Assembly: GCA_965262915.1 (NCBI GenBank)
Contig: OZ253564.1
Span: 192,001-256,000 of the forward strand
DNA: 64,000 nucleotides
Source: Candidatus Spongiisociaceae bacterium
Lineage (GTDB): Bacteria; Actinomycetota; Acidimicrobiia; Spongiisociales; Spongiisociaceae
Direction: 5' to 3'
Shown here piece after piece: positions 39,871 to 56,766 of this stretch (its first letter is position 1; each line of letters opens with the position of its first letter). The translations under genes were made by a program, and so were the position numbers. The notes under the pieces are model-generated. The model worked only from the letters and a program-made list of their open reading frames with translations. It was not told the origin of the DNA and made no database searches.

Positions 39871-40504
39871 CCTTCACCGCTTCGCGCACGAACACCAATC
39901 CGCCCTTGGGACCCGGTACGGAGCCTTGCAGGACCAGCAGGTCACGCTCCGTGTCGACACCCACCACCACGAGGCTCAGGATCGTGGTGCGTTCCCCGCC
40001 CATGCGGCCGGGCAGCTTGGTGCCCTTGAAGACCCGGGCAGGAGTGGCGCAGGCCCCGATGGCGCCGGGCGATCGGTGGGTCTTGTGGACGCCGTGGCTG
40101 GCGCCCTGACCCCGGAAGTTGTGGCGCTTCATGACCCCCTGGAATCCCTTGCCCTTGGAGACACCGGTCACATCGGCCATGCCGCCCGCCTCGAACAGGT
40201 CACCGACCCGCAACTCCTGGCCCAGCTCGAAGGTCCCGATGTCGTCGACCCGTACCTCGACCAGGTGGCGGGCCGGCTGGACCCCCGCCTTGGCGAAGTG
40301 CCCGGCCCGCGGCTTGTTCGCCTTGTGGGGGGGCATCCTGCCGTAGGCCAGTTGCACCGCCGTGTAGCCGTCGTTCTCCTCGGTACGTATCTGGGTGACG
40401 TGGCAGGGGCCAGCCTTGATGACCGTCACCGGGATGGCCCGCGCCTGCTCGTCGAAGATGCGGGTCATCCCCAGCTTCTCTCCCAGGAGAGCGGCGGGGA
40501 TCAT
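39863..40504 (-). CDS. rplC: 50S ribosomal protein L3
   Basis: [24 protein letters not shown]. Confidence 0.97.
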
Positions 40505-40809
40505 GTCTCGATCTCCACTTCGACACCCGCCGGCAGGTCGAGCCTCATCAGCGACTCGATCGTGTTGTGGGTGGGCCGGAGGATGTCGATGAGGCGCTTG
40601 TGCGTGCGTATCTCGAAGTGCTCGCGGGAGTCCTTGTAGACATGGGGCGAGCGGATCACGCAGTATCGGTGGACCCTGGTCGGAAGCGGAACCGGACCAT
40701 GCACTATGGCCTGGGTACGTATGACCGTCTCGGCGATCTTGCGCGCCGACTCGTCCACCACCTGGTGGTCGTAAGCCTTCAATTTGATCCGGATCCGTTG
40801 TTCTTTCAT
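40501..40809 (-). CDS. rpsJ: 30S ribosomal protein S10
   Basis: [28 protein letters not shown]. Confidence 0.97.
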
Positions 40810-40862: not shown

Positions 40863-42050
40863 TTACTTGGTGATTTTGGTGACGGTGCCCGCACCTACAG
40901 TACGACCACCCTCCCGAATAGCAAACCGCAAACCCTCATCCATAGCAATAGCAAACCCCAACTCCACCGACATATACGTATTATCACCCGGCATCACCAT
41001 CTCCACACCCCCAGGCAACCCCACCCGACCAGTCACATCCGTAGTACGAAAATAAAACTGCGGCTGATACCCAGGAAAAAACGGATTATGCCGACCACCC
41101 TCATCCTTAGTCAACACATACACCTGCGCATCAAAACACGTATGCGGCGTAATCGAGGACGGCGCAGCCAACACCTGCCCCCGCTCCACATCCCCCTTAC
41201 GAACCCCCCGCAACAACACCCCAATATTGTCACCAGCCCGACCCTCATCCAACAACTTCCGAAACATCTCCACCCCCGTCGCCACCGTACGACGAGTCTC
41301 CCGAATCCCCACCACCTCAACCGTCTCACCAACCCGAACCACACCAGCCTCCACCTTCCCAGTCACCACCGTCCCCCGACCAGTAATCGAAAACACATCC
41401 TCAATCGGCATCAAAAACGGCCGATCCACCGGACGATCAGGAACCGGCACATACGAATCAACCGCATCCATCAACTCCAACACACCCCCAGCCGCCACCG
41501 GATCACCCTCCAACGCCCCCAACGCCGACACCGGAACCACCGGCACGTCATCACCCGGAAACCCATAATCATCCAACAGCTCCCGAACCTCCAACTCCAC
41601 CAACTCCAACAACTCCTCATCATCCACCAAATCAACCTTATTGAGCGCCACCACCACACACGGCACCCCCACCTGACGAGCCAACAAAACATGCTCCCGC
41701 GTCTGAGGCATCGGCCCATCAGCCGCCGACACCACCAACACCGCCCCATCCACCTGCGCCGCACCCGTAATCATATTCTTGATATAATCCGCATGACCCG
41801 GCATATCCACATGAGCATAATGACGAGCAACAGTCTCATACTCCACATGAGCAATAGCAATCGTAATACCCCGCTCACGCTCCTCAGGCGCCTTATCAAT
41901 CTCATCAAACACCGTAAACACATTCCCAGACACACGCTCAGACAACACCCGAGTAATCGCAGCAGTCAACGTCGTCTTACCATGATCAATATGACCCATA
42001 GTCCCAACATTCACATGCGGCTTAACCCGCTCAAACCTAGCCTTCGCCAT
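40863..42050 (-). CDS. tuf: Elongation factor Tu
   Basis: [34 protein letters not shown]; anomalous G/T-ending codon usage. Confidence 0.98.
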
Positions 42051-42056
42051 GGTTCA

Positions 42057-44177
<2,121 letters not shown>

Positions 44178-52298: not shown

Positions 52299-52717
52299 AC
52301 GGGGGCTTCCACCAGCGACCGATCACCCGGTGGGTCGTGATCTACTCGTGAACATGCCTTGTCCCTAGCTGAGGCTATAGGTGAACCGTACCGGGTTTCC
52401 CGGAGAGTGTTTTACTTGAGTCCAGCTAGCTGGACTCGGTTCTGCTCACGATGGTAGTTGGCCTCCTTTTCTGCTGGTGGGATGTCTCCGATGGGTTCGA
52501 GGAGTCGGCGGTGGTTGAACCAGTCGACGTATTCGAGGGTGGCGTACTCGACTTGGTCGAGGTCCTTCCAGGGAGCGCGTTTGTGGATGAGTTCTGTCTT
52601 GTATAGGCCGATGACGGATTCGGCGAGGGCGTTGTCGTAGGAATCCCCAACCGAGCCGACTGAGGGTTCGATGCCGGCTTCGGTGAGCCGGTTCGTGTAG
52701 CGAATGGACAGATATTG

Positions 52718-55109
<2,392 letters not shown>

Positions 55110-55510: not shown

Positions 55511-56766
55511 CATCGGTGTGGTTCAGAAGAACTTGACGGTGGGCGTCTACCTGTCTGCTCGGATTGTGACGGTCACGAATCTTGGATCGTTCGGGATCAG
55601 CCTCGACGAGTACGTGTTGTCTTGGACTGACGATACCGATTCGGGCAGTTATGAACATCCGATAGAAGACGTCACGGTGGCGGCCGGGTCGTCTCATGTG
55701 TTCGGTGTCGACAAGCCGCTTTCGGCTTCGGTGACGTTGAACAACCGGTACGCTCTGCAAGTAGCCTCCAGGGCAACCCGGTTACTCACGTTCCCGGCGG
55801 CTGCGGGCTGCCGGTGTCGTCGGGCGGGGGTCCCGGGCGCCTCGGTGAGTTGCCCTATCCGGAACACCCCACCATCACCGACAGCAACCGTCAGAGAAGG
55901 TCAACCGCGCCTGGTAGCAGTTCAACCCTGTAGCCCGATCAGATCCCGACGCCCGGCACTTGACGCGGGGTGGTTCTGCTCTCGGGGCGGTCAGAGGCGG
56001 GGGTACGATCCCGGTTGTCGCGGTCGGGTCCACGATGGTTGGCGTCGTCGCTCTCGAAGTGGAGACACCCGGCCCCCACCGACCTGCTGGCGCATACCTG
56101 GTCGTCGGCTGTGGTGGGCTTCCGACGACGACCTGGTGGCGGCGGACACTGCGGGCTGTGAATGGCGGGTGACCGAGATCGTCTCGTCGGGGCATCCGCT
56201 GTTGGTCTGGTACGACAACGACATGGGCGTGTGATCCGCAACGTCGCCCTGGGGCTGCGCACCGCAGTGGCTCGCTGTGTCGCCGACGCAGCGGGCCCAA
56301 GTCGAGGCGGCCGACAGGCGGCTGCTGAAACGGGTCGGGCTGGACGCTGCCGAGCACGACAAGTGGCTGGGCGGTTGGTGTGAGGTGGGGGACACGCCGG
56401 AGTCGAACTGTGTGTGGGGCATCCGCTCCCCGGTGTGTGGCAGTGGTCTCTGACGATCGGCTGGCGGAGTCCGGTTGGGTACCGGCAGCGGGACTTGACG
56501 GTTGCTTTGGGGATTACCCGGTTTTGGCGGTTCTCCGACGGGTTGGACAGACCGTAGCGGGTTCCGGGTGGCGGGCCGGGAAGGCGAGCACCTCGGGTGG
56601 CCACACCAGCCGCTCGTCGGCGGTGCTGGGCCGGTGGCTCACTCGGTAGGTGGCAGTGTGGTCGTAGTGGCCGCGGTCGTAAACATTGGGGAATTATATA
56701 TTTAGCTTGACGAACCCGGCGAATGCTGCTTAGATACTGGTATACAGCAGATGAGGATAGAACACA

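Follow-up and report, generated by a model that had tools for sequence, protein, structure and literature searches.

Repeated DNA with a strong strand bias in base composition is known from the polyketide synthase (PKS) genes of bacteria, where it goes by the name GRINS. Here we report a tract of this type in tuf, the gene for elongation factor Tu (EF-Tu), of a Candidatus Spongiisociaceae bacterium of the class Acidimicrobiia. The gene lies in a stretch of 64,000 nucleotides (contig OZ253564.1, positions 192,001 to 256,000 of the forward strand), referred to as the window. The genome under study (5.05 Mb) is designated G000, so that the window is G000:192001-256000, and its closest named relatives are metagenome-assembled genomes (MAGs) of Acidimicrobiia. 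GRINS have been defined as sequences duplicated over more than 500 bp at more than 80% identity, with mean |GC skew| and mean |TA skew| above 0.15 (PMC8256042). As described there, PKS GRINS are frequent in actinobacteria and seldom found in proteobacteria and bacteroidetes, transposases are the genes with which GRINS overlap most often, and the skew is tied to gene conversion by a mechanism that the authors call unknown.

The tufA and tufB genes of Salmonella and E. coli are the other close parallel. These two genes are near-identical and their conversion tracts end at the gene ends, as for the pair described below. Their concerted evolution by gene conversion was reportedly described by Abdulkarim and Hughes in 1996. 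In E. coli, one copy follows fusA and the other follows a tRNA gene at the head of the secE-nusG region; the arrangement in G000 is similar, with rpmG next. No G/T recoding has been described for tufA and tufB, and their hosts use MutS/MutL. In the published model of concerted evolution for the Salmonella pair, conversion initiation is uniform and bidirectional (Paulsson et al. 2017, PMC5485169).

NucS/EndoMS is a non-canonical mismatch repair enzyme of Actinobacteria and Archaea (PMC11551767, PMC11551744, PMC6159521, PMC5290159), known from this literature only as a system against replication errors and recombination. For G-G, G-T and T-T mismatches introduced by oligonucleotides in M. smegmatis, removal is reported to exceed 500-fold, and the other tested types escape (PMC11551767). 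The EndoMS of C. glutamicum is reported to cleave G/T, G/G and T/T in vitro (PMC6159521). Repair is described as short-patch, an A-C mismatch being spared when a G-T only 5-6 bp away is repaired (PMC11551744), and NucS is described as reducing recombination between 85-95% identical (homeologous) sequences 3- to 10-fold (PMC5290159). This specificity (G·T, G·G, T·T) splits the bases into the same two classes as does the skew of tuf.

We express the skew of a gene as GT3, the fraction of sense codons with G or T as third base. The relevant features, in coordinates of the window, are the following.

40863..42050, minus strand: tuf (EF-Tu) coding sequence (CDS), an intact open reading frame (ORF) of 395 codons plus TAA, identified from the ORF and its translation
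40890..42047, minus strand: G/T-skewed tract, tuf codons 2-387, with A and C depleted wherever the protein permits
40866..40889, minus strand: 3'-terminal tuf codons 388-395, third positions C C C C A C C G, where the skew stops or flips
42057..44177, minus strand: fusA (EF-G), directly upstream of tuf, an unskewed control with GT3 0.455
40501..40809, minus strand: rpsJ (S10), directly downstream of tuf, an unskewed control with GT3 0.47
41088..42104, plus strand: stop-free frame of 338 codons antisense to tuf, judged from the ORF list and composition to be no gene

The third positions of the tuf sense codons are 222 G, 160 T, 11 C and 2 A, giving a GT3 of 0.967 (382/395). By codon position, the counts of G/C/T/A are 192/68/60/76 at the first, 73/91/128/104 at the second and 222/11/160/3 at the third. 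The original prediction, made from the letters alone, held that tuf is almost wholly G/T-ending unlike its neighbours, that the protein is intact, that the first C-ending codon is Ile90 and that the skew reverses in the last ~8 codons; all of this is borne out. The earliest codon with an A or C ending is Ile90 (ATC), the remainder being codons 136, 168, 274, 298, 385 and 388-394, and the tract of codons 2-387 thus holds six such endings only. The closing eight codons read GGC ACC GTC ACC AAA ATC ACC AAG, and a reversal of this kind is general across homogenised tuf genes. Recoding extends beyond the wobble base: the synonym with the maximal G/T content is used at 380/394 codons, Leu is encoded by TTG at 25/27 positions, and four-fold sites are occupied by 112 G, 66 T, 5 C and 1 A.

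No such skew is seen in the adjacent genes. In fusA (G 271, C 349, A 36, T 50) the final 20 codons, which end 7 bases before the ATG of tuf, have a GT3 of 0.35; four other ORFs of the ribosomal operon near tuf have values of 0.445-0.59. Judged from the usual arrangement of the str operon, fusA and tuf are probably co-transcribed. Local GC at tuf is 0.52-0.61, versus 0.65-0.70 across the rest of the window. The per-gene comparison of third positions that had been proposed as a check places both copies of tuf (see below) first and second among the 16,672 ORFs of at least 100 aa in G000, for which median GT3 is 0.49 and the 99th percentile is 0.68. Another 24 ORFs reach at least 0.80, all of them short (101-186 aa); to judge from position and odd translation they seem to lie in G/T-rich repeat ends, as checked for a few. 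The stop-free frame antisense to tuf results from the skew, since stop codons are few on a strand with so little T and G.

Some C-ending codons within the skewed tract recur at the same positions across many lineages. These sites include the ATC of Ile90 in the DYIKNM motif (window 41781..41783) and alignment columns ~94-96, 266, 277, 309 and 337. They seem to withstand the drive toward G and T, perhaps since T at these sites could make an unwanted A/T-rich motif.

The suspicion that tuf is duplicated proved correct. The second copy (G000:4696906-4698093, minus strand) lies 591 kb from the window copy, and the two are identical at 1185/1185 sense-codon bases, from the ATG to the last sense codon. 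Within the CDS they differ only in the stop codon (TAA versus TGA); upstream from position -3 and downstream from the stop codon on, the two sequences are unrelated. The window copy is preceded by fusA; the second copy sits between a tRNA gene and rpmG, and its transcribed leader is unskewed. The dnaA gene is at 405 kb, and detrended cumulative GC skew is lowest at 0.2-0.7 Mb and highest at 2.85 Mb; therefore, both copies share one replichore and are co-oriented with replication. Two copies of tuf also occur in many other Acidimicrobiia (G030, G080, G019, G117, G031, G046, G106 and others) as direct repeats 17-45 kb apart, a distance that genes running from the rpmG-secE region to the str operon would be expected to fill. 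A third tuf-like sequence in G019 (G019:C1:16-1227, L199), 72% identical to the query protein and alone on a contig of 1231 bp, could be a divergent extra copy or contamination.

By the published definition, tuf of G000 is a GRINS. It is duplicated over 1185 identical coding bases (1191 and 1192 bp as repeats in the self-alignment), at 100% identity over sense codons and 99.9% for the high-scoring pair, and in windows of 150 nt with a 30-nt step its mean |GC skew| is 0.49 and its mean |TA skew| is 0.35. The skew threshold is lenient, being passed by 170/2000 random 1190-bp windows; the keto (G/T) skew of the whole tuf tract is 0.43, above the maximum of 0.35 among 2000 random windows, and the median |keto skew| in G000 is 0.04. 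The descriptive traits of GRINS are present too, namely correlated GC and TA skews, a peak at third positions and a shift in amino acids. The likeness to the PKS GRINS of PMC8256042 thus includes intense, correlated GC and TA skews that are strongest at third positions, and an amino-acid usage drawn toward GGN and GTN codons. Unlike PKS GRINS, tuf is an essential housekeeping gene in two dispersed copies, its skew is almost one-sided, and the case is conserved across genera and families of a class. Neither 'tuf' nor 'elongation factor' appears in the main text of PMC8256042, and none of the papers listed by our literature searches describes a skewed tuf, judged by titles and abstract openings.

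Composition can also be driven by biased handling of mismatches in heteroduplex, as in GC-biased gene conversion, which favours G/C over A/T and is strand-symmetric. Strand asymmetries of replication and transcription arise where one strand is exposed unequally, and they are weak and not confined to repeats. The tuf skew would resemble these processes in biased mismatch handling or strand exposure; it differs from GC-biased gene conversion in its base classes and its strand asymmetry, and from replication and transcription asymmetries in its strength and its confinement to repeats.

Across the class, skew in tuf appears only where both copies are kept homogenised. We surveyed 111 genomes of Acidimicrobiia, which are mutually related, so that the counts are not independent trials. 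A full-length tuf match was found in 81 of them; 36 two-copy genomes were listed and 35 pairs compared, the pair of G010 (GT3 0.97 and 0.96) being excluded from the identity count because its predicted starts differ. G059, G082 and G128 (partial or three matches) and the second copy of G006 were left out. Where the copies are near-identical (98.1-100%), GT3 is 0.55-0.98 in 31/31 genomes and at least 0.63 in 30/31. Where they have diverged (85-89% identical; G038, G057, G062 and G096), it is 0.40-0.51 in 4/4. Genomes with a single match in assemblies of at most 10 contigs, the single-tuf relatives called for by the original prediction, have a GT3 of 0.39-0.52 in 10/10. A further 8 single-match drafts (20-160 contigs) span 0.39-0.89; how many copies these have is uncertain, since assembly breaks or collapses identical ones. 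The proposed link to gene conversion thus holds throughout the class (31/31 versus 4/4 and 10/10). As in tufA and tufB, copies within a genome (98.1-100% in the 31 pairs) are closer to each other than are orthologues between genomes: G000 and G004 differ at 20/74 four-fold sites even in the part of the gene that is skewed in both.

Within the same genus, family and order as G000, GT3 of tuf is mostly 0.86-0.98 and in others 0.42-0.57, and among named Acidimicrobiia MAGs it reaches 0.985 and 0.91. In Streptomyces and most other sampled phyla it is 0.40-0.65. One unskewed row (L027, GT3 0.44) comes from an unpublished genome (G022), and no conclusion rests on it. The skew also shifts the choice of amino acids toward G/T-rich codons. 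The G/T fraction at codon positions 1 and 2 is 0.57-0.60 in the most skewed tuf genes versus 0.47-0.52 in unskewed ones, and it tracks GT3 (r = 0.72, n = 46, the genomes not being independent).

The substitutions sort by base class: in tuf, G and T are interchangeable, and A and C are purged. In the part of the gene skewed in both G000 and G004, 18/20 four-fold differences are G/T. Where the skew differs between the two genomes, T/C and G/C each make up 22/74 four-fold differences. The 83 differences between copies within genomes comprise 26 C/T, 19 C/G, 19 G/T, 11 A/G, 6 A/C and 2 A/T. Changes from G:C to C:G are normally among the rarest substitutions. In mutation accumulation lines of C. 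glutamicum, two thirds of substitutions are described as transitions, and 75% of transversions as A:T<->G:C (PMC6159521). Since G/C exchanges are as common here as T/C exchanges, the force sorts G and T against A and C, unlike deamination (C>T, A>G). The purely transitional C>T/A>G process put forward in the original prediction therefore falls short.

The skew also follows a rule of position. In tuf of G004, GT3 is 1.00 at codons 1-80 and 0.68-0.75 at codons 161-280, and from codon 321 to 395 it falls from 0.25 to 0.14 (0.14 at codons 361-395), versus a baseline of 0.34-0.51 for unskewed genes in the bins of codons 321-395. Thus, the skew changes sign rather than merely fading, in a gene whose copies are identical along the whole CDS and whose 3' part encodes protein nearest to that of its own genus. 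Averaged over 32 homogenised genomes, GT3 declines from 0.87-0.93 at the 5' end to ~0.73-0.82 around codon 360, and the last bin stands at 0.38. A-ending codons make up 10.9% of the last 12 codons in 33 homogenised tuf genes, compared with 1.2% in the remainder of these genes and 2.3% of the last 12 codons in 11 single-copy or diverged ones.

From this 3' flip we predicted that each repeat should be G/T-rich 5' and A/C-rich 3' on each strand, that is D > 0, where D is the keto skew of the left third minus that of the right third on the + strand. Among 60 repeat families of G000, some of which are related to one another, D is positive in 49, in 30/33 of those with |D| of at least 0.2 and in 23/25 of those with |D| of at least 0.3. 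In random windows D is positive in 999/2000, and in non-repeat genes in 515/1040 (SD 0.075), none of the latter reaching |D| of 0.3. On each strand, repeats of G000 are therefore rich in G/T on the 5' side and in A/C on the 3' side, a positional rule that is new here, and tuf is a one-sided case in which the switch point lies almost at the 3' end. No such 5'/3' rule is stated in PMC8256042, where NucS is not mentioned. An example given in that paper, a G+T-rich segment of an AT domain and a C+A-rich post-AT linker of the same module within 1 kb, would have the same 5'-keto, 3'-amino order as the repeats of G000 if 'post-AT' means that the linker follows the AT domain.

Transposon families show the rule along their length. 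Their profiles start at +0.5 to +0.67 at one edge of the element and fall steadily to -0.3 to -0.57, non-coding ends included, as in the following families, whose names are taken from plasmid annotations of relatives.

G000:1023665-1025346, 2799555-2801312, 693468-695410 and 684557-686247 (L038, L042, L203): DDE transposon families (IS1380-like, IS1182-like), keto skew on the + strand from ~+0.6 to ~-0.5

The same profile is found in G006 (6 copies) and G005 (1 full copy), and in 6/6 IS1182 transposase genes from plasmids of Mycolicibacterium, Rhodococcus, Dietzia and Streptomyces D is +0.19 to +0.41. Searches of plasmids by tblastn with the IS1182-like and IS1380-like transposases returned Actinomycetota almost exclusively among the matches listed (26/26 records in one case; 97 records in the other, all shown names being Actinomycetota and 4 groups unnamed). 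Because transposases of the same families were found almost only in Actinomycetota, we used matches to the Pfam family DDE_Tnp_1 for a contrast with proteobacteria. Nine of ten distinct DDE_Tnp_1 ORFs from G002 and G010 have a positive D; the mean over the ten is +0.35 and the GT3 drop is 0.31. In three proteobacterial genomes with MutS and without NucS, mean D of the transposase ORFs is +0.08 (n=10) and the GT3 drop is 0.04, and in E. coli K-12 the elements IS30, IS5 and IS1 have a D of +0.08 to +0.11.

Contrary to the original prediction, the skew is not confined to tuf. A self-megablast of G000, whose counts may be lower bounds, identifies ~9.5% of the genome (477,833 bp, 276 regions) as repeated at no less than 80% identity over at least 500 bp. 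A |keto skew| of at least 0.15 is reached by 123/485 repeat versus 135/4570 non-repeat windows of 1 kb, and one of at least 0.20 by 52/485 versus 35/4570. Besides DDE transposons (Pfam), the skewed repeats include paralogous genes. A tandem pair of Amidohydro_2 genes (G000:3692038-3693093 and 3695416-3696393, L201), 97.5% identical, has a GT3 of 0.24 (C 179, A 62, G 63, T 13), and a dispersed pair of the MarR family (G000:4447619-4448209 and 4080426-4081049, L202), 97.2% identical, has values of 0.23-0.25. In both pairs A-ending codons are near 20-27% and the sign of the skew is opposite to that of tuf; therefore, both signs occur on coding strands.

NucS, the only mismatch-repair system found in G000, is encoded there (PF01939, 125.9 bits), and MutS_V (PF00488) had no match in this genome (a single contig, 96% completeness; MutL was not searched for). 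G138, whose tuf has a GT3 of 0.985, likewise has NucS and no MutS match. Literature searches, judged by titles and abstract openings, returned no work that joins GRINS to NucS, and the link made here is our own.

We propose that the copies of tuf would pair and that the heteroduplex at a given site of the repeat would tend to hold the same strand from the same partner, a strand polarity that could arise as single-stranded 3' tails enter the repeat from its edges. NucS/EndoMS would clear G·T, G·G and T·T in short patches and ignore A·C, A·A, C·C, A·G and C·T, and differences between the copies would thus be transmitted or erased by base class. On the assumption that the incoming strand is the corrected one, as with oligonucleotides, G or T on that strand would be erased wherever the resident base is G or T, and A or C on it would survive in every case. 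Incoming G/T could then not displace A/C, the reverse being possible, and G/T differences (present as A·G or C·T mismatches) would pass both ways. Over many rounds the incoming strand would become trapped in A/C and its complement in G/T. With tails from lesions in the flanks, each strand would be incoming mainly near its own 3' end. The model would yield the observed sign, the sharp onset at the boundary of homology, the inward decay and the reversal toward the far end. For tuf, the tails would enter mainly from the 5' side.

With a slight leaning in its favour, we read tuf as a GRINS that is homogenised by gene conversion and whose silent sites are driven to one base class by NucS-filtered, strand-polar conversion. 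Of this reading, we infer the action of NucS on these heteroduplexes, the strand corrected there and the sites of the lesions. The lower D of transposases in hosts with MutS, in small samples, and the reported distribution of PKS GRINS among phyla speak for the link to NucS. That the keto/amino skew of GRINS in general is a NucS/EndoMS footprint, with tails that enter at the edges giving every repeat its 5'-G/T, 3'-A/C gradient, is a tentative extension, which we consider possible and short of probable.

Several observations weigh against these two readings. The 3' third of tuf in G004 is skewed in the opposite direction though its copies are identical, and homogenisation alone thus leaves the sign of the skew unset. 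That sign follows from the model only if the place of the lesion and the strand that NucS corrects in the D-loop are assumed, and the same sign would result from breaks inside the repeat combined with deamination of the exposed tail. A positive D reads identically on either strand, so that by itself it is no proof of independence from orientation. A rule in which the sign depends on the replication strand (the lagging-strand-template model) is unsupported: 71/123 strongly skewed repeat windows agree with their replichore (33/52 at the higher threshold), no better than the background of 65%. NucS is present also in the 4 genomes with diverged, unskewed tuf copies, and it is at most necessary and not sufficient for the skew. 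The connection of NucS with the skew is drawn from matching specificities and from contrasts that are small and phylogenetically uncontrolled. Taxa with MutS show a weak D of the same sign (8/10 proteobacterial transposases and 3/3 E. coli IS families), and four proteobacterial tuf genes, from taxa with MutS and without NucS, have a GT3 of 0.71-0.755. Finally, the footprint in tuf of G000 is polar, versus the uniform, bidirectional initiation of the Salmonella model as described (PMC5485169).

The first alternative, which is the reading of the original prediction, is strand-specific deamination (C to U, A to hypoxanthine) of single-stranded DNA exposed by recombination between copies or by heavy transcription. 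Its direction fits, since it is the coding, non-template strand that has lost C and A, and the coding strand of both tuf copies, being co-oriented with replication, is the lagging-strand template. Breaks within the repeat would, by derivation, leave resected 3' tails and a bipolar profile of the observed sign; lesions in the flanks with deamination of the exposed tail predict the opposite one. Cytosine deamination is named as a possible contributor by the authors of the GRINS study (PMC8256042). However, transitions alone are insufficient to account for G/C exchanges that equal T/C exchanges (22 each of 74) and for 19 C/G among the 83 differences between copies. Exposure by transcription should also have reached the adjacent fusA and rpsJ, assuming co-transcription, and the transcribed leader of the second copy, all of which are unskewed, as is the single-copy tuf, presumably equally expressed, in 10/10 genomes. 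We therefore regard deamination as an unlikely cause.

Error-prone synthesis during recombination has been suggested in the same context, with a polymerase that stabilises keto/enol or amino/imino tautomers and so miscopies one class (PMC8256042). As presented in that paper, the process is bound to recombination-associated synthesis and hence to repeats, and it is class-based (G, T versus A, C) like our data; in its published form it would produce no changes other than C>T and A>G, which leaves the observed G/C exchanges unaccounted for. It also fails to explain 3'-terminal codons that are homogenised yet oppositely skewed. We know of no tautomer-biased polymerase of this kind, and we consider this explanation quite improbable.

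Selection on the mRNA or its translation would favour a C-poor, G/U-rich message that evades Rho, an RNase or a toxin, folds weakly or suits the tRNA pool. That the skew starts at the start codon and spans the CDS of the most abundant protein is in line with this idea. U-ending two-fold codons and TTG for Leu are not the usual targets of tRNA-based selection. The contrast in copy number (10/10 single-copy and 4/4 diverged-copy tuf genes of the same class are unskewed) largely refutes selection of this type, and the same skew is present in transposons, non-coding ends included, and in the paralogous amidohydrolase and MarR genes, in part with a coding-strand sign opposite to that of tuf. We rate it as very unlikely.

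In in-vitro selection work RecA reportedly pairs G/T-rich single strands best, and alleles that alter the G/T content of the invading strand might thereby change their own odds of being overwritten. Such a drive at the initiation of recombination would be strand-specific, repeat-bound and polar, like the data. A single-base change, however, would hardly affect the filament, yet the purge is near-complete (380/394 codons), and the drive offers no filter that acts site by site; its chance of being the cause seems remote.

Foreign origin or an artefact of assembly or sequencing, for which only the dip in GC at tuf (0.52-0.61 in a window of 0.65-0.70) might speak, can practically be dismissed, given the presence of the skew in both copies and in many independent assemblies across genera, the failure to find a genome with such codon usage genome-wide (the 16,672 ORFs of G000 were checked), and the unskewed 3' part of EF-Tu of G004, which is nearest to its own genus (0.94-0.96 identity, L007 and L008), so that its protein similarity follows genus and horizontal transfer is excluded, in line with the original prediction.

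Other skewed sequences were noted in the window and elsewhere in G000. Positions ~52379-54780 of the window (G000:244379...) are a member of an 11-copy repeat family with a mean length of 2405 bp and a D of +0.36, and positions 56107-56686 (G000:248107-248686) are a repeat of 580 bp, 94.1% identical, with a keto skew of +0.21. In L036 (G000:4154501-4158000), positions 948-1360 hold a tRNA gene directly followed by a tract of ~330 bp that is almost purely G/T on the + strand and comprises the terminal part of a gene resembling transposases (576 aa, weak DDE_Tnp_1_6 match) and the adjoining spacer. A scan of eight strongly skewed regions against Rfam identified only one tRNA and one match to Ms_IGR-7; therefore, the skewed tracts fit no described Rfam RNA family. 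The match to Ms_IGR-7, an actinobacterial sRNA, is at positions 2789-2907 of L039 (G000:1726789-1726907) and scores 45.3 bits, the gathering score being 45.

GRINS matter for the diversification of polyketide synthases and for their engineering. The tuf gene of Acidimicrobiia is a simple natural system in which to study them, with one copy, two homogenised copies or two diverged copies of a gene for a conserved protein, and in this class tuf becomes skewed only where its copies are homogenised. Taken with the mismatch classes recognised by NucS, which it matches, the positional rule gives GRINS a concrete and testable candidate cause. If the reading of the skew as a NucS footprint is true, tuf of Acidimicrobiia would be its cleanest natural read-out, and the same rule would operate in PKS GRINS, in actinobacterial transposons and perhaps in archaeal and viral skew tracts. 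A mismatch-repair enzyme would then shape codon usage, amino-acid composition and the evolution of repeats in Actinobacteria, and the extreme codon bias of a highly expressed gene would be the product of molecular drive, not of translational selection.

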